DNA from: Oscillospiraceae bacterium | Lineage (GTDB): Bacteria > Bacillota > Clostridia > Oscillospirales > Ruminococcaceae | Direction: 5' to 3' | Assembly: GCA_020024615.1 (NCBI GenBank) | Contig: JAHHTP010000003.1 | Coordinates: forward strand, 4,112-68,111 | DNA length: 64,000 nt | In this document: one piece after another, positions 3,265 to 55,617 of the stretch | How positions within the stretch are numbered: the stretch's first letter is position 1 | Layout: every line of letters starts with the position of its first letter | The notes under the pieces: model-generated | Databases searched by the model: none | What the model saw: the letters and a program-made list of their open reading frames with translations, nothing else | Told to the model about the DNA's origin: nothing | Made by a program: the position numbers and the translations under genes

Positions 3265-3786
3265 TTATAACAACACATAATTTTTAAGAACCTCTTTTTC
3301 TCTCGGTTTATCTCCTGCCGATAATCCGATCGCCAGAGAACCAACCGGTTTGTAACCGTCTGGAACACCGAAACTTTTTGCTAATGCCTTTCCATCCTCT
3401 GACAGCATACCTTCAATCACACAGTTAATCCAACAGGTTGCAAGTCCCAACGATTGTGCAGCAAGCATCATGTTCAGCGTCGCCATCGACGCATCCTTCT
3501 CTGGCGCAATATTTCCCTCTTTGCCGAAAACCAAAATAATGGTTGGAGCACGGTAAAACGGATTTTTCTCTTCTGGCATATTGCAGGCATTCACGCAGAT
3601 TTTTCGAATCTGCTCTACTTTTGTGGCATCCTGTACTGCTACCATAAACCAGGACTGCTGATTCATTGCGCTCGGTGCCTGCATTCCGGCATTCAACACC
3701 TCAACCAACTCTGATTTGGTGATTTGATGCGGCAGAAAATTCCGACAGCTACGGCGTTCGTAAATGTTCTTCATTGCTTCGTTCAT
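3265..3786 (-). CDS. Nitroreductase family protein
   Basis: MNEAMKNIYERRSCRNF... with typical nitroreductase N-terminus (RRSxRxF) and length about 173 aa. Start taken at the internal Met of ORF 3265..3810. Confidence 0.75.
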   Translation of the reverse strand: MNEAMKNIYERRSCRNFLPHQITKSELVEVLNAGMQAPSAMNQQSWFMVAVQDATKVEQIRKICVNACNMPEEKNPFYRAPTIILVFGKEGNIAPEKDASMATLNMMLAAQSLGLATCWINCVIEGMLSEDGKALAKSFGVPDGYKPVGSLAIGLSAGDKPREKEVLKNYVLL

Positions 3787-3799
3787 TTTAAAATCCCCC

Positions 3800-4486
3800 T
3801 TATAGTACAAATGCGTTTTTGATTTTTTTCTCCCGAATTTTATAATCCGGAAGTACAGATTTCACAGCACGATAAAAATCTGGTGAATGATTCATCTGTA
3901 CCAGATGACACAGTTCATGTACCAATACATAGTCAATGCAATCAGTTGGCAACATCATCAGGCGGTAACTTAAATTGACCGACTTCCTGCTGCTGCACGA
4001 GCCCCATCGCTTCTGCGCTGAACTAATTTTCACCGCCTCATACTGCAATCCCATCCGCTGTGCAAACAGCGAAAGCCGTCCTGGCAAATATTCTTTTGCA
4101 GCCTGCTTGTAAAAAGCAGTCAGTTGTTCCTTGCGATTTTCCTCTGGCAGAAAAATCTCACCATTTGCACAGCGCATTTTCCCAGAAGCCAGCGGTCTGA
4201 TCAACATTTTTTCTCCCAAAAATGGAATGTATTCTCCATCTTTTAAGGTAGTCTGCGGCATATTCTGTTTCTGCTGTCTGTGTGAAATAATCCAGTTTAA
4301 ATGCTTCTGCAAGACAAATGCAATATCCTTATTTGTCATCCGCTGCGGTACACGCAGTTCCACCGAACCATCTACCAAGATTTTAACCGCATAGCTTTTT
4401 CGTTTGGCACGAATCACAGTATATGGAATATCCGTTCCCGGAATTAGCTCCTTCACTGCGGTAGATGCAGCAGCATACTGCACCAT
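3800..4486 (-). CDS. YgjP-like (DUF45/M48 family) metal-dependent hydrolase
   Basis: WGSCS...LVHELCHLVQMNHSPDFY (HExxH zinc motif in DUF45 context). The 5' end overlaps the prmA 3' end by 34 nt. Confidence 0.7.
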   Translation of the reverse strand: MVQYAAASTAVKELIPGTDIPYTVIRAKRKSYAVKILVDGSVELRVPQRMTNKDIAFVLQKHLNWIISHRQQKQNMPQTTLKDGEYIPFLGEKMLIRPLASGKMRCANGEIFLPEENRKEQLTAFYKQAAKEYLPGRLSLFAQRMGLQYEAVKISSAQKRWGSCSSRKSVNLSYRLMMLPTDCIDYVLVHELCHLVQMNHSPDFYRAVKSVLPDYKIREKKIKNAFVL

Positions 4487-5403
4487 CCATTATCCTCCAA
4501 GCGTTTTTCAACCACAAGTCCTGAATCAACCAACGCTTGCATAACTTCATCCGCACGACTGTCAATGATACCCGAAACAATCAGACTGGTATTTTCATGC
4601 ATAAACTGCTGTACCGTTTCGGATAAGCGAATAATAACATCCGCAACAATGTTCGCACAGATGATGTCAAATTTTCCATTTACCTTATCTACCAGATCAC
4701 CGCATACAAATTCACAGCGGTCAGTGACCTGATTCAACTCAGCATTTTCGCCTGCAATCTTGACAGCAACCGGATCAATATCCACGCCAATCGCATTTTT
4801 AGCACCCAGACACAGGGCTGTAATTGCCAAAATGCCTGAACCCGTGCCAATATCCAGAACCGCTTCATCTCCTTTAACCACTTCTTCCAGCAGAGTCATA
4901 CACAAACGAGTGGTTTCATGCGAACCAGTACCAAAAGCCAGACCTGGATCAAGCGTCACCTGCACCTGCTCCGGTTTCAAATCCACCTTTTCCCAGACTG
5001 GACAAACTACCAATCGTCTACCGATTTCCTGCGGATGATAGTACTGCTTCCATGCGTTCGACCAATCCTCCTCAGTGATGTCACCGAAAGATAACTCCAG
5101 ACTGCCCAAATCCACAGCTTTGTTCTGCTCTCTAAGCGCATCCAGCCCCGCACGCAGATTGCGCAATGTTTCCATACCGGTTAAATTATCCTCTAAATAG
5201 ATAACAATGGCAGTCGGTGCTTTCGCCTTTTCCATTAGGCTTTCTTCCACATAGTCCCAATGAATGGTGGTGTCGGTCAGGAAGTTATTGAAATCTTCTG
5301 CATCCTCAATGCAAAATCCGGTGATGCCGCAGCCTACCAGATAACCGCTGACAATATCGATTGCTTCGGTGGTTGTATAAATTCTAATTTCCTTCCAATT
5401 CAT
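4453..5403 (-). CDS. prmA: Ribosomal protein L11 methyltransferase
   Basis: 316 aa with PrmA N-terminal domain and SAM motif VLDIGTGSGILAITALCLGA...GVDIDPVAV. Confidence 0.85.
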   Translation of the reverse strand: MNWKEIRIYTTTEAIDIVSGYLVGCGITGFCIEDAEDFNNFLTDTTIHWDYVEESLMEKAKAPTAIVIYLEDNLTGMETLRNLRAGLDALREQNKAVDLGSLELSFGDITEEDWSNAWKQYYHPQEIGRRLVVCPVWEKVDLKPEQVQVTLDPGLAFGTGSHETTRLCMTLLEEVVKGDEAVLDIGTGSGILAITALCLGAKNAIGVDIDPVAVKIAGENAELNQVTDRCEFVCGDLVDKVNGKFDIICANIVADVIIRLSETVQQFMHENTSLIVSGIIDSRADEVMQALVDSGLVVEKRLEDNGWCSMLLHLPQ

Positions 5404-14944: not shown

Positions 14945-15300
14945 TGCCTGCTCCTCCTGCTTCAAACAAGTAATACGCATATTCGTCTTAAAATCTGTCT
15001 AACATATATGCTTTCCTGCCTTTATTGATGTTGAGATTATCCAATTTACGGCATAATTCCCCTCTCAAATACGCCTTATTACTTCATTATATCACAGTTT
15101 TTAACGATTGCAACTTATTATTGAAATTTTTTTGTAATCATTGACAAAAAATTCTAATCCTCTTATCAAAACATTTGCGCTCTAAAATCGATAATAAATT
15201 GACAAATATTTCTCAAAATGCTATAATAGCTATGGGAAATATCTATCATTTGAATGGGGTATCCCATAAACCTACTAATTTGACAAGGATGGATTTTATT

Positions 15301-44265: not shown

Positions 44266-44513
44266 GTCATTTTCCTTTTTGAATACACTAAGTCGTTTTC
44301 TACATAAAGTTCTTACTAAAATGCCATTGAAACCATTAAAATGTATTTTCACCTTCTTTCCGAATGCTTCTCCTTATAATATATCATCTTTTTAGATTAT
44401 TTTCTACATCTTTTTTTAAACTTGTCTTTACATATCATACAAAGATTGCTCTTGACATTTCCTTTTGAACCAATTATAATAAAACTAATTATGTCAGAAA
44501 GGAACGATTTATC

Positions 44514-51928: not shown

Positions 51929-52459
51929 TCAAACTGAATGACTCGTAAATAGTTCTCTCTTACATTCATTATATTTCCCCTTTATTTCACTGACAAGCTG
52001 CCAGGCTATACCTCCTTTTTTGAGATATTCTGGTGCATTTTTCAAGTTCACCCACCGAGCACTGTCAACCTCTTTGGAAAGTGTAAAGTCAGCTTTTTTG
52101 ACATCAGCCCGAAATCCAAACATCAGCATATTCTTTTTCTCATGGAAATAGCTTTTGATGTAGGTCAAATTCTGCACATCCAGCCCAATTTCTTCTTCAA
52201 TTTCCCGTATAGCCGTTTGCTCAGCTGTTTCCCCTTTCTGAATAAAACCGGCCACGCAGACCTCATTCTGCTGTGACACATAGCTTTGTTTGAGCAATGC
52301 TACCTGATTATGTTCATTCACAACAGCGCAGATAACGCAGACAGAAAATTCTTCCCAGAACGGTTTCAAACACCGGTTGCAGTATGGAAGCATTCCTTCA
52401 TCACCGATTTCTTTGGGCGTCAACTTCTCCCCACAGTACGGACAATAGGCAAATGACAT
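51929..52459 (-). CDS. NUDIX hydrolase with N-terminal zinc ribbon (NudC-like architecture)
   Basis: CPYCG...CNRC zinc ribbon plus NUDIX box GETAEQTAIREIEEEIG. Confidence 0.75.
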   Translation of the reverse strand: MSFAYCPYCGEKLTPKEIGDEGMLPYCNRCLKPFWEEFSVCVICAVVNEHNQVALLKQSYVSQQNEVCVAGFIQKGETAEQTAIREIEEEIGLDVQNLTYIKSYFHEKKNMLMFGFRADVKKADFTLSKEVDSARWVNLKNAPEYLKKGGIAWQLVSEIKGKYNECKRELFTSHSV

Positions 52460-52555
52460 CTGACTCCCTCCCTTATGCTTTAAGAGTAGCACAAATCGAT
52501 TATTTTGTAAAGTATTTTTTCCACAAATGTAAAAAAATGTTCACAAACACAAGTT

Positions 52556-52584
52556 GACAAGGTATGGAATAAATGATATAATAA
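52556..52584 (+). promoter_or_regulatory. Near-consensus sigma-70 type promoter
   Basis: TTGACA-17 nt-TATAAT. Confidence 0.5.
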
Positions 52585-52597
52585 GCATATAAATAAA

Positions 52598-52780
52598 ATC
52601 GTATGAGGGAGTAGCAAGCGTAAAAACGCAGCAAGTCAACATCACTGGTCTCGTAAGTAGCCTGGCTTGCTTTAATTTGCAAGACTCATGTATAGTATAA
52701 AATTCTATACTCGAGTCCTCTATATGTCTGAAACTCAGACTCAAGTATAGCACATAACGTTATACTTGGGTCTTTTTTTA
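52598..52780 (+). promoter_or_regulatory. Candidate riboswitch leader of the P-type ATPase gene, possibly yybP-ykoY (Mn2+) type
   Basis: Sits between the consensus promoter and the ATPase gene. P1-like pairing uaugag(52604)...cucaug(52689) encloses GGGAGUAGC, hairpin GCGUAAAAACGC and GUCAACAUC. The 3' end is the terminator hairpin caagtata-(11 nt)-tatacttg plus T9 at 52742-52780. Confidence 0.45.
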
Positions 52781-52805
52781 TTATAATAAGAAAGAAGGGT
52801 ATGTA

Positions 52806-55442
52806 ATGAAGTATTACTGCAAAACCAAAGAGGATGTTCTGCAAGCGGTATCAACAACAGAAACTGGATTAACCTCTGCTGAAGCACAAAAAAGGCTGGA
52901 ACAAAATGGAAAAAACAAACTGGCTGCCGCAAAAGGCAAATCCTTAATCCGCCGTTTTTTGGAGCAGCTTGCCGATCCGATGATTATTATTCTGCTGGCT
53001 GCTGCCGGCATCAGCGGCGTACTTGCTGTTGTGGAAAACGAAAGCTTTACCGATGTTATTATTATCCTGGCTGTGGTACTAATCAACGCTGTGTTGGGTG
53101 TCTATCAGGAAAGCAAAGCAGAAAAAGCAATCGAGGCATTGCAGGAGATGTCCGCCGCCACATCCAAAGTACTGCGTGACGGAAAAGTTATCACCATCCA
53201 CAGTGAAGATCTGGTTATCGGTGATGTGATTCTGCTTGAAGCAGGTGATGCTGTTCCAGCGGATGCCAGAATTCTGGAAAATGCCAGCTTGAAGGTTGAA
53301 GAAGCTGCTTTAACCGGTGAATCGGTTCCGGTTTCCAAATTTATTGATATTATCAATTTAACGGACGGCGCGAAGGATGTGCCACTCGGCGATCGTAAAA
53401 ATATGTTGTATATGGGTTCCACTGTTGTTTACGGACGCGGCAGAGCCGTTGTCACCAATACTGGTATGGACACCGAAATGGGTAAAATTGCGGATGCACT
53501 GCAAAACGCGCAGGACGGCCAAACCCCGCTCCAATTAAAACTTACCCAGCTTTCCAAAACTCTAACCTGGCTGGTACTGGGCATCTGTATTGTTGTGTTC
53601 GGTGTACAGTTAATCAAAGCAGGCAGTTTTAATGTTGACATTTTGATGGATTCCTTTATGGTTGCCGTATCGCTGGCAGTAGCTGCTATTCCGGAAGGTC
53701 TGGCTGCGGTCGTGACAGTCGTGCTATCCATCGGTGTTACCAATATGTCCAAGCGTCATGCAATCATCCGTAAATTGACTGCTGTGGAAACACTCGGATG
53801 TGCACAAATTATCTGTTCGGATAAAACTGGTACACTGACACAGAATAAAATGACCGTTGTAGATCACTTCGGAGAAAACGAAGCAGATATTTCTGTCGCT
53901 ATGGCACTATGCAATGACGCGGAATTAAATAGTGACAGTAGTATTACTGGTGAACCGACCGAAGCTGCACTGGTTGACTGGGCAAATCGGCTGAACCTGC
54001 CAAAGTATCAGCTGAAAGAAAAATCCCCTCGTATCGGAGAGGCTCCATTTGATTCCGGCAGAAAAATGATGTCCACCATCCATCAGACGGATCACGGTTT
54101 TATCCAATATACCAAAGGCGCACCGGATGTTGTCATTGATCGATGCACCCACTATCTCGAAAACGGAAAAATGGTTCCAATGACAGCGGAGTATACCCAG
54201 AAAATTCTCACTGCTAACAAACAGATGGCAGATAAAGCACTTCGCGTTCTTGCTTGTGCCGAACGCATATGGGACACCAAACCAGAAAAATACACCCCAA
54301 AAGCACTGGAAACCGATCTCTGCTTTGTTGGCTTATGCGGTATGATTGATCCAGTTCGTCCGGAAGTCAAGGATGCAATTGTAGAATGCCGTAGCGCAGG
54401 AATCCGTCCGATCATGATCACTGGCGACCATGTAGACACTGCCGTTGCCATTGCTAAGGAACTTGGCATTATCGATGAACACACCAGAGCCATCACTGGT
54501 GCGCAGTTAAATGAACTGTCTGACGCAGAATTTGAAAAACAGTTCACCGAGATTTCAGTATATGCCCGTGTACAGCCAGAACATAAGACGCGTATCGTTA
54601 ATGCATGGAGAAAAGCTGGCTATGTTACAGCTATGACCGGTGACGGTGTCAACGATGCTCCATCCATCAAATCAGCAGATATTGGTGTCGGTATGGGCAT
54701 CACTGGTACCGATGTTACTAAAAATGTAGCCGATATGGTTTTGACCGATGATAACTTTGCAACCATCGTTGGTGCTGTTGAGGAAGGCAGACGCATCTAC
54801 GACAATATTCGAAAAGCAATTCAGTTTCTGCTTGGCTCCAATATGAGTGAAGTCTTGAGTATCTTTACCGCCACACTGCTTGGTTTTACCATCTTAAAAC
54901 CGGTTCATCTGCTTTGGATCAATTTAATCACCGACACCTTCCCAGCACTGGCTTTGGGTACCGAAAAGGCAGAACCGAACATTATGAAACGAAAACCGCG
55001 TGATGCAAAAGCGGGTGTATTCTCAGGTGGTATGGGCTTTGATATCGCATATCAAGGTATTATCGTTACCATTCTGGTTCTGACATCCTACTTTATCGGT
55101 CACTATATTGAAACAGGCGTCTGGAGCATTACAAACAGCACAGACGGCATGACTATGGCATTTTTGACCATGTCTATGGCAGAAATCTTCCATAGCTTCA
55201 ATATGCGTTCTCAGCGTCAGAGTATCTTCAAGCTCGGCAAGCAAAACAAATTGTTGCTGTTGGCTTCCCTTGGCTCACTGGTTGCAACTACACTGGTTTG
55301 TGAAGTCCCATTCCTTGCAGAAGCATTTGGGTTTGCAACTGTAGAACCGCTAGAGTATCTGATTGCCGCAGGTCTGGGATTGCTGATTATCCCGATTGTT
55401 GAAATTGTCAAGCTGATTCAGCGTAAAATCTCTAAAGATTAA
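52806..55442 (+). CDS. Cation-transporting P-type ATPase (P2-type, Ca2+/Mn2+-ATPase family)
   Basis: DKTGTLT phosphorylation site, TGDGVNDAPS hinge motif, PEGL in M4, 10 TM, 878 aa. Confidence 0.9.
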   Translation: MKYYCKTKEDVLQAVSTTETGLTSAEAQKRLEQNGKNKLAAAKGKSLIRRFLEQLADPMIIILLAAAGISGVLAVVENESFTDVIIILAVVLINAVLGVYQESKAEKAIEALQEMSAATSKVLRDGKVITIHSEDLVIGDVILLEAGDAVPADARILENASLKVEEAALTGESVPVSKFIDIINLTDGAKDVPLGDRKNMLYMGSTVVYGRGRAVVTNTGMDTEMGKIADALQNAQDGQTPLQLKLTQLSKTLTWLVLGICIVVFGVQLIKAGSFNVDILMDSFMVAVSLAVAAIPEGLAAVVTVVLSIGVTNMSKRHAIIRKLTAVETLGCAQIICSDKTGTLTQNKMTVVDHFGENEADISVAMALCNDAELNSDSSITGEPTEAALVDWANRLNLPKYQLKEKSPRIGEAPFDSGRKMMSTIHQTDHGFIQYTKGAPDVVIDRCTHYLENGKMVPMTAEYTQKILTANKQMADKALRVLACAERIWDTKPEKYTPKALETDLCFVGLCGMIDPVRPEVKDAIVECRSAGIRPIMITGDHVDTAVAIAKELGIIDEHTRAITGAQLNELSDAEFEKQFTEISVYARVQPEHKTRIVNAWRKAGYVTAMTGDGVNDAPSIKSADIGVGMGITGTDVTKNVADMVLTDDNFATIVGAVEEGRRIYDNIRKAIQFLLGSNMSEVLSIFTATLLGFTILKPVHLLWINLITDTFPALALGTEKAEPNIMKRKPRDAKAGVFSGGMGFDIAYQGIIVTILVLTSYFIGHYIETGVWSITNSTDGMTMAFLTMSMAEIFHSFNMRSQRQSIFKLGKQNKLLLLASLGSLVATTLVCEVPFLAEAFGFATVEPLEYLIAAGLGLLIIPIVEIVKLIQRKISKD

Positions 55443-55541: not shown

Positions 55542-55617
55542 CTGGGTGTGGCGCAGCTGGTAGCGTGCTGCCTTGGGGTGGCAGAGGCCGTGGGTTCAAG
55601 TCCCGTCACTCAGACCA
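55542..55617 (+). tRNA. tRNA-Pro (anticodon GGG)
   Basis: Cloverleaf: acceptor CTGGGTG/CACTCAG plus discriminator A plus CCA. D-arm GCGCAGCTGGTAGCGT. Anticodon stem CTGCC/GGCAG with loop TTGGGGT. T-arm GTGGG-TTCAAGT-CCCGT. Extended -10 (TGcTATAAT) about 12 nt upstream. Confidence 0.85.

Follow-up and report, generated by a model that had tools for sequence, protein, structure and literature searches.

A probable three-way-junction yybP-ykoY-type metal riboswitch upstream of an LMCA1-like P-type ATPase gene in a gut Clostridia genome

Riboswitches of the yybP-ykoY (Mn2+) family have P1.1 as their switch helix: its 3′ half has two alternative partners, one inside the aptamer and one in the expression platform. 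The Escherichia coli alx member is a three-way junction that lacks P2 (PMC12153347). The single predicted Mn2+ riboswitch of Clostridioides difficile precedes a P-type ATPase orthologous to Lactococcus lactis YoaB (PMC11477304). The closest described system is the mgtA riboswitch of Streptococcus pneumoniae, a three-way junction with an invariant UNAAA, where N is U or G, in the place of P4 (Martin et al. 2019, PMC6649816). The 3′ side of its L1 loop consists of a variable nucleotide followed by an invariable AGA, C49 and A50 of L3 are invariant, and C46–G83 forms the A-minor receptor; the aptamer is followed by a terminator and a PII-type ATPase described as analogous to LMCA1 (PMC6649816). 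In vitro, Mn2+ is by far the stronger activator of read-through and Ca2+ gives some, and in vivo mgtA is induced by Mn stress (PMC6649816). The subject here is a leader in contig JAHHTP010000003.1 of an Oscillospiraceae bacterium, contained in a window of 64,000 nucleotides (nt) to which all coordinates refer. It lies between a divergent NUDIX-hydrolase gene (51929–52492, − strand) and a P-type ATPase open reading frame (ORF; 52806–55442, + strand), and is very likely a riboswitch of the yybP-ykoY (Mn2+) family in its three-way-junction form that turns the ATPase gene on, with Mn2+ as the presumed ligand.

A covarying aptamer upstream of Clostridia ATPase genes

Related leaders were collected through a tblastn-confirmed scan for orthologues of the ATPase, which provided 80 loci (66–82% identity, all Clostridia), mostly from gut metagenome-assembled genomes of Oscillospiraceae, Lachnospiraceae and Christensenellaceae. 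The string GGAGTAG occurs 140–360 nt 5′ of the start codon in about 58 of the 80, where TCAACA usually follows after about 30 nt. A covariance model (CM), R1, was built from 47 aligned ATPase leaders, with the five-helix structure written explicitly for cmbuild. It matches 69 of 81 sources (the window and 68 of the 80 related loci), and each match lies 5′ of the ATPase gene, on the same strand as the gene. The window holds a single match in 64 kb (52599–52693, 76.5 bits, E = 5e-17), and this uniqueness, combined with the same placement and orientation in 68 of the 80 loci, puts the element far beyond chance. R1 (E ≤ 1) has no match in nine loci with a full upstream region of about 400 nt (L007, L017, L018, L021, L031, L042, L052, L068 and L075), nor in L014, L024 and L063, where the upstream region is cut by a contig end. 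The riboswitch is common, not universal, 5′ of the related ATPases.

The helices are conserved as pairs. In the CM-fitted alignment, 93% of the cells are paired and 26 of 28 pairs show double changes; sliding the partners by 1–3 columns reduces pairing to 25–43%. A structure-blind alignment made with MAFFT alone gives 85% paired cells, versus 29–41% for the slid controls. Given this second alignment, RNAalifold by itself predicts P1.1 and P1.2, and as many as 27 sequences are compensatory at a single pair (27 double changes at P1.2 pair 18/106); the helices beyond P1.1 and P1.2 were not recovered because the variable stems are misaligned, a difficulty that the explicit structure solves. All five helices covary, and P1.1, P1.2, P3.1 and P3.2 each carry compensatory pairs. 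The loops are more strictly conserved in sequence: GGAGUA is present in all 69 aligned leaders, and the 3′ side of L1 reads GAGA, AAGA or CAGA in 67 of them. Within the C-A-A-C-A core of L3 and the C–G receptor pair, C52637, A52638, A52641 and G52664 are invariant, and A52639 and C52640 are conserved in at least 90%. The elements of the window copy, all on the + strand, are as follows.

52602–52690, + strand: probable riboswitch aptamer, a three-way-junction (P4-less) yybP-ykoY / mgtA-type metal-sensing domain of 89 nt (R1 match and covariation)
52602–52607 / 52685–52690, + strand: P1.1, the switch helix, UAUGAG / CUCAUG (compensatory changes at five of six pairs)
52608–52613, + strand: 5′ side of L1, GGAGUA, putative metal-site loop (invariant in 69 of 69 aligned sequences)
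52614–52617 / 52677–52680, + strand: P1.2, GCAA / UUGC (strongest covariation in the alignment)
52618–52629, + strand: P2 hairpin, GCGU-AAAA-ACGC (compensatory changes at all five model pairs)
52630–52638 / 52663–52671, + strand: P3.1, with 5′ strand AGCAAGUCA (covariation; C52637–G52664, which is C39 and G66 of alignment row 1, is invariant)
52639–52646, + strand: L3 loop, ACAUCACU (A52641 invariant, C52640 at least 90%)
52647–52662, + strand: P3.2 hairpin, GGU/GCC, three base pairs (52647–49 / 52660–62) and a 10-nt loop (minimum-free-energy (MFE) fold)
52672–52676, + strand: junction linker UUAAU in place of helix P4 (linker survey of relatives)
52681–52684, + strand: 3′ side of L1, AAGA (NAGA; AGAC is invariant)

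The core residues can be placed against those of the pneumococcal RNA by position. G52608 and G52609 would be the equivalents of G16 and G17, and A52610 of A18; C52637–G52664 probably occupies the place of the A-minor receptor pair C46–G83; and C52640 and A52641 would take the place of the metal-coordinating C49 and A50 (A41 in L. lactis numbering), the roles being those described for the pneumococcal RNA (PMC6649816). The G16A/G17A changes in mgtA give a non-binding RNA.

A first-pass annotation of the window, made from the letters alone, had singled out two strings, GGGAGUAGC (52607–52615) and GUCAACAUC (52635–52643), separated by a small hairpin (52618–52629), as matches to the most conserved strings of the yybP-ykoY riboswitch. 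This reading is correct: the RF00080 consensus, as printed in the cmscan output, reads UGGGGAGUAGC ... GUCAACAUAC ... UGGC, and the window strings match it. Specifically, GGGAGUAG at 52607–52614 with AAGA at 52681–52684 fits an L1 5′ strand of the GGGGAGUAG type with its AGA 3′ strand, and GUCAACAU at 52635–52642 with UGGC at 52663–52666 supplies the conserved L3 loop pattern (GUCAACAU...UGGC). The P1-like helix uaugag/cucaug proposed in the same annotation is P1.1 (52602–52607 with 52685–52690), whose pairs covary in the relatives.

R1, which contains ATPase leaders only, also finds the E. coli mntP riboswitch (28 bits, E = 3.5e-7) with L1, P2, P3.1, L3 and P3.2 in register, which ties the ATPase leaders, at profile level, to a validated member of the family. 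The earlier proposal, a yybP-ykoY Mn2+ riboswitch controlling a P-type ATPase on the model of pneumococcal mgtA, is supported by the comparative structure, the L1/L3 core, the profile link to mntP and the published description of the pneumococcal RNA (PMC6649816).

Expression platform, proposed switch and regulated gene

Between the promoter and the ATPase gene, the aptamer is followed by two tandem hairpins, only the second of which ends in a U tract.

52554–52582, + strand: sigma-A/sigma-70 promoter, with −35 TTGACA (52554–52559), a 17-nt spacer ending TGA, and −10 TATAAT (52577–52582)
52682–52718, + strand: hairpin H1, the first copy, in which segment A (52682–52695, containing the P1.1 3′ strand) pairs with segment B (52705–52717); −12.5 kcal/mol, no U tract
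52705–52750, + strand: proposed antiterminator, segment B (52705–52717) with segment C (52738–52750); duplex −14.5 kcal/mol, putative function
52737–52779, + strand: intrinsic terminator, the second copy of the duplicated hairpin, with the 15-base-pair stem C:D (52737–52751 / 52759–52773) and T7; −19.4 kcal/mol
52794–52799, + strand: ribosome-binding site (RBS) GAAGGG, 6 nt 5′ of the ATG at 52806 (read from the sequence)
52806–55442, + strand: type IIA (LMCA1 / PMR1 / SERCA-like) Ca2+/Mn2+ P-type ATPase of 878 amino acids (domain, profile and structure matches)

In most relatives the platform is simple. The 5′ arm of the terminator consists of AGAC, the P1.1 3′ strand and a few more bases in about 50 relatives; since one strand is needed for both structures, a P1.1 stabilized by metal would exclude the terminator, which is the logic of an ON switch. 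In the window, a direct repeat of 36 nt (52682–52717 and 52737–52772, 75% identical, 55-nt spacing), of which the second copy alone keeps the U tract, indicates that the switch/terminator hairpin has been duplicated, leaving four segments: A (52682–95), B (52705–17), C (52738–50) and D (52760–73). Two-hairpin platforms occur in about ten related leaders. In the closest single-hairpin relative, L009, the 3′ arm of the terminator (GCUAUACUUGGGUCU) is nearly equal to segment D of the window.

Segment B can pair with either neighbour. As hairpins, A:B, B:C and C:D have energies of −12.5, −11.8 and −19.4 kcal/mol, respectively. B and C are complementary at 12 of 13 positions, and none of 300 shuffles reaches the B:C duplex energy of −14.5 kcal/mol. 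When successive prefixes of the transcript are folded without constraint, A:B forms once B has been made and C:D follows, giving termination; with the aptamer enforced, the MFE structure contains B:C before D is transcribed, giving the antiterminator. The mutually exclusive pairing for which the first-pass annotation had suggested a folding check is therefore present, with 52705–52717 / 52738–52750 competing with the terminator. In the MFE fold of the full leader, the 5′ strand of P1.1 (GUAUGAGG) pairs with CCUCUAUAUG just 3′ of hairpin A:B (52600–52609 with 52718–52727); this pairing may offer the switch helix an additional decoy, or may be due to chance.

These pairings suggest the following mechanism. 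Transcription would start about 10 nt before the aptamer. As cytoplasmic Mn2+ rises, an ion would be bound between L1 (GGAGUA / AAGA) and L3 (ACAUCACU), Ca2+ possibly serving as a less effective ligand. Binding would dock the two helical legs of the aptamer and stabilize P1.1 (52602–07 / 52685–90). With no metal, A:B and C:D would pair, H1 presumably acting as an anti-antiterminator, and the terminator would form, leaving the pump gene untranscribed. With metal, A would be kept in P1.1, B would pair with C as C emerges, D would remain single-stranded and RNA polymerase would read through, so that the ATPase is made and the excess ion exported. For the window copy, the probabilities for and against such a four-segment relay (1:2/3:4 versus 2:3) are about evenly balanced.

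The promoter, the consensus TTGACA-17-TATAAT site that the first-pass annotation had read here, agrees with the consensus at 12 of 12 positions and has a TG two bases 5′ of the −10 element. Four perfect matches to TTGACA-17-TATAAT occur in the window, versus 0.01 expected, which suggests that the organism uses this promoter type and makes the site at 52554–52582 credible. The other three are at 1432–1460 (− strand), 15199–15227 (+ strand) and 44452–44480 (+ strand). Judged from the promoter position, transcription probably starts at about 52589–52591. The strong intrinsic terminator of that annotation is likewise present, at 52737–52779, with a stem of 15 base pairs in place of the 8 proposed and with T7 (52773–52779, then ATT) in place of T9; the distance of 26 nt given between terminator and RBS is correct as a number, and separates the last T of the run from the ATG, the RBS being at 52794–52799. 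A 10-nt inverted repeat (TTTTTTATTA / TAATAAGAAA, 52774–52793) joins the U tract of the terminator to the sequence just before the RBS. A leader-peptide or protein-coding reading of the leader was rejected, as 52590–52805 contains no ORF of at least 40 amino acids on the + strand; a terminator belonging to the upstream gene was also rejected, since the NUDIX gene (51929–52492) is divergent and on the opposite strand.

The ORF at 52806–55442, earlier described as a Ca/Mn-type P-type ATPase, encodes a complete set of P-type ATPase domains and is a type IIA enzyme. Its top NCBIfam matches are the Ca2+ pump models TIGR01522 (PMR1-type) and TIGR01116 (SERCA-type), both below their equivalog cut-offs, and among solved structures the best match is the Listeria Ca2+-ATPase LMCA1 (6zhf; E = 1.5e-214, end-to-end alignment). 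A tRNA-Pro(GGG) gene (55542–55617, + strand) follows on the same strand 100 nt 3′ of the ATPase stop codon, and the ATPase is also followed by tRNA genes in L013 and L020. In L003, a 6S RNA gene (4363–4569, − strand; 65.8 bits) lies just 3′ of the gene for the ATPase orthologue and runs opposite to it. In L015 (173–1504) and L034 (353–1504), the riboswitch lies 1.2–1.4 kb 5′ of the ATPase with one gene intervening, which encodes a CNNM/CBS/CorC-type divalent-cation transporter in L015 and an AI-2E family transporter in L034; both loci look like riboswitch-controlled two-gene operons.

Counter-evidence and alternative readings

The observations that weigh against the assignment of the leader, or against its proposed switching, concern the Rfam model, departures from the known pattern, folding energies and the ion preference of the pneumococcal RNA. 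The Rfam model of the family, RF00080 (Rfam 15; gathering score 45 bits, an operational threshold and not a structural definition), has no match in the whole window at gathering and none at E ≤ 10 on 451 nt or 109 nt; 20 orthologous loci likewise gave no RF00080 match at gathering. Chance-level matches returned by cmscan were rejected: microRNA precursors, which reflect the long palindrome at 52681–52774, NsiR1 and bglG, which are terminator-like, and yjdF at 13 bits. The validated mntP aptamer itself (positions 3462–3558 of L081, the E. coli K-12 leader) scores 41.6 bits against RF00080, below the gathering score of 45, and the P4-containing orthologous leader L048, the only such leader scored in E-value mode, gives a weak match (16.4 bits, E = 0.01). 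These two scores make a miss by RF00080 unsound as a criterion. In the printed structure of RF00080, P1 pairs are lacking and the last hairpin is very long; much of the yybP-ykoY family appears ill served by the current model. As grounds for abandoning its proposal, the first-pass annotation had named the lack of such a match together with the lack of an antiterminator; the RF00080 miss came true and the lack of an antiterminator did not, as 52705–52717 pairs with 52738–52750.

The element gives no above-threshold match to any Rfam family, which would also fit a structured leader that is the target of a protein or small RNA, or strings that look like those of yybP-ykoY by chance. However, five covarying helices surround an invariant L1/L3 core that is common to validated members, the architecture is identical to that of a biochemically characterized riboswitch, and the same Rfam model scores E. 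coli mntP under gathering. Given the covariation and the invariant core, a non-riboswitch origin is exceedingly improbable and effectively excluded.

The window copy departs from the pattern in its UUAAU linker (versus UNAAA) and its 3-base-pair P3.2, and its likeness to pneumococcal mgtA is drawn from the published description of that RNA. P3.2 is the weakest helix of the window copy, and the CM register is one off there; the helix covaries in the relatives. The linkers of 59 P4-less leaders read UUAAA in 21, UGAAA in 13 and UUAAU in 6, the window included. U[U/G]AAA is contained in the linkers of 38 of the 59 P4-less relatives, and the last base differs in the window. In about 10 of the 69 aligned leaders the P4 position is taken up by a long linker or by an additional hairpin, which resembles a four-way junction, so that both forms occur 5′ of orthologous ATPases. 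The three-way-junction form, documented earlier in Streptococcus, appears to be the prevalent one in these Clostridia lineages.

At equilibrium, C:D beats B:C and forms even with the aptamer enforced (−50.8 versus −38.9 kcal/mol), so any ON response of the window copy must be kinetic, that is, co-transcriptional. The B:C complementarity of other two-hairpin relatives is also uneven, being matched by between 3 and 171 of 300 shuffles; given these mixed results, generality of the relay among two-hairpin relatives is not claimed. An intact aptamer uncoupled from its platform, with C:D forming regardless of metal and acting as a constitutive (leaky) attenuator, would account for a C:D stem that shares no nucleotides with P1.1, exceeds B:C in stability by about 7.6 kcal/mol, and is kept in the lowest-energy fold even when the aptamer is enforced. 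Such uncoupling is nevertheless very unlikely in view of the B:C complementarity (12/13, 0/300 shuffles), which is what a functional antiterminator needs; of prefix folding, in which B:C is in place before D is transcribed; of the retention of every core aptamer nucleotide; and of the recurrence of two-hairpin platforms in about ten related leaders. A metal-responsive ON switch is the preferred reading.

The identity of the metal is suggested by the pneumococcal precedent, which also supplies a point for another ion: the pneumococcal aptamer binds both Mn2+ and Ca2+, and Ca2+ more tightly (PMC6649816). The same fold could respond physiologically to Ca2+, or to divalent cations generally, and report the Ca2+ load to an LMCA1-type pump. 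The affinity of the ATPase to LMCA1 and to the PMR1/SERCA models, the read-through obtained to some extent with Ca2+, and the CNNM/CorC-type divalent-cation transporter gene between riboswitch and ATPase in L015 would agree with this. Against it, Mn2+ is far more potent in vitro in the only characterized three-way-junction member, Mn stress is the inducer in vivo (PMC6649816), and A52641, at the position of the N7 ligand that specifies Mn, is invariant. A Ca2+ ligand is unlikely on this evidence, and Mn2+ is retained as the probable one.

Comparison with described systems

The main value of these results is in annotation, as probable Mn2+ riboswitches 5′ of LMCA1-type ATPases in gut Clostridia are invisible to the current RF00080; the set comprises the window and 68 of the 80 related species-level loci examined. 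A re-seeded Rfam model would recover this ATPase-linked set. The biology is as expected, a known RNA fold that would let the substrate of a metal exporter switch that exporter on, and the duplicated-terminator relay is a small curiosity bearing on the evolution of expression platforms.

For the expression platform alone, the nearest analogy is the attenuator of the trp-operon type, which has four segments and in which sequestration of segment 1 lets a 2:3 antiterminator replace a more stable 3:4 terminator. The window likewise has four consecutive segments with the same 1:2 / 2:3 / 3:4 scheme. It differs in that segment 1 would be captured by a ligand-stabilized helix and not through a stalled ribosome, and there is no leader peptide. 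A bolder and rather doubtful proposal is that duplication of the terminator turned a competition between P1.1 and the terminator into a trp-attenuator-like kinetic relay (A:B / B:C / C:D), a form not known to have been described for Mn2+ riboswitches and apparently recurrent in a subclade of gut Clostridia, or, as a second possibility, that Ca2+ is what the ATPase-linked three-way-junction subclass senses physiologically.

With the four-way-junction members of the yybP-ykoY family (L. lactis yoaB and E. coli mntP), the window element shares the L1/L3 core, the P1.1 switch helix, P2 and P3.1/P3.2, and the association with metal exporters, which include P-type ATPases (L. lactis YoaB and C. difficile CD2503). 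Unlike these canonical members, it lacks P4 while keeping P2, and is not matched by RF00080. E. coli alx is alike in demonstrating that the family tolerates the loss of one peripheral helix (PMC12153347); alx, however, keeps P4 and is translational and pH-coupled, whereas the window element keeps P2, lacks P4 and is transcriptional.

The resemblance is closest to S. pneumoniae mgtA (SN44). Both have P1.1, L1, P1.2, P2, P3.1, L3 and P3.2, with a 5-nt linker in place of P4; both have the conserved L1 5′ strand, NAGA, the C and A of L3 and the C–G receptor pair of P3.1; and in both the aptamer is followed by an intrinsic terminator and a PII-type, LMCA1-related ATPase, so that ON logic is expected. 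The differences are that the host of the window belongs to a gut Clostridia lineage and not to Streptococcus, that the linker is UUAAU versus UNAAA (most relatives of the window have UUAAA or UGAAA), and that the terminator hairpin of the window is duplicated, the terminator itself having no overlap with P1.1. Of the listed mgtA features only the final linker base is not matched; the element is thus probably a member of a known riboswitch subclass in a new host lineage, and not a new class.

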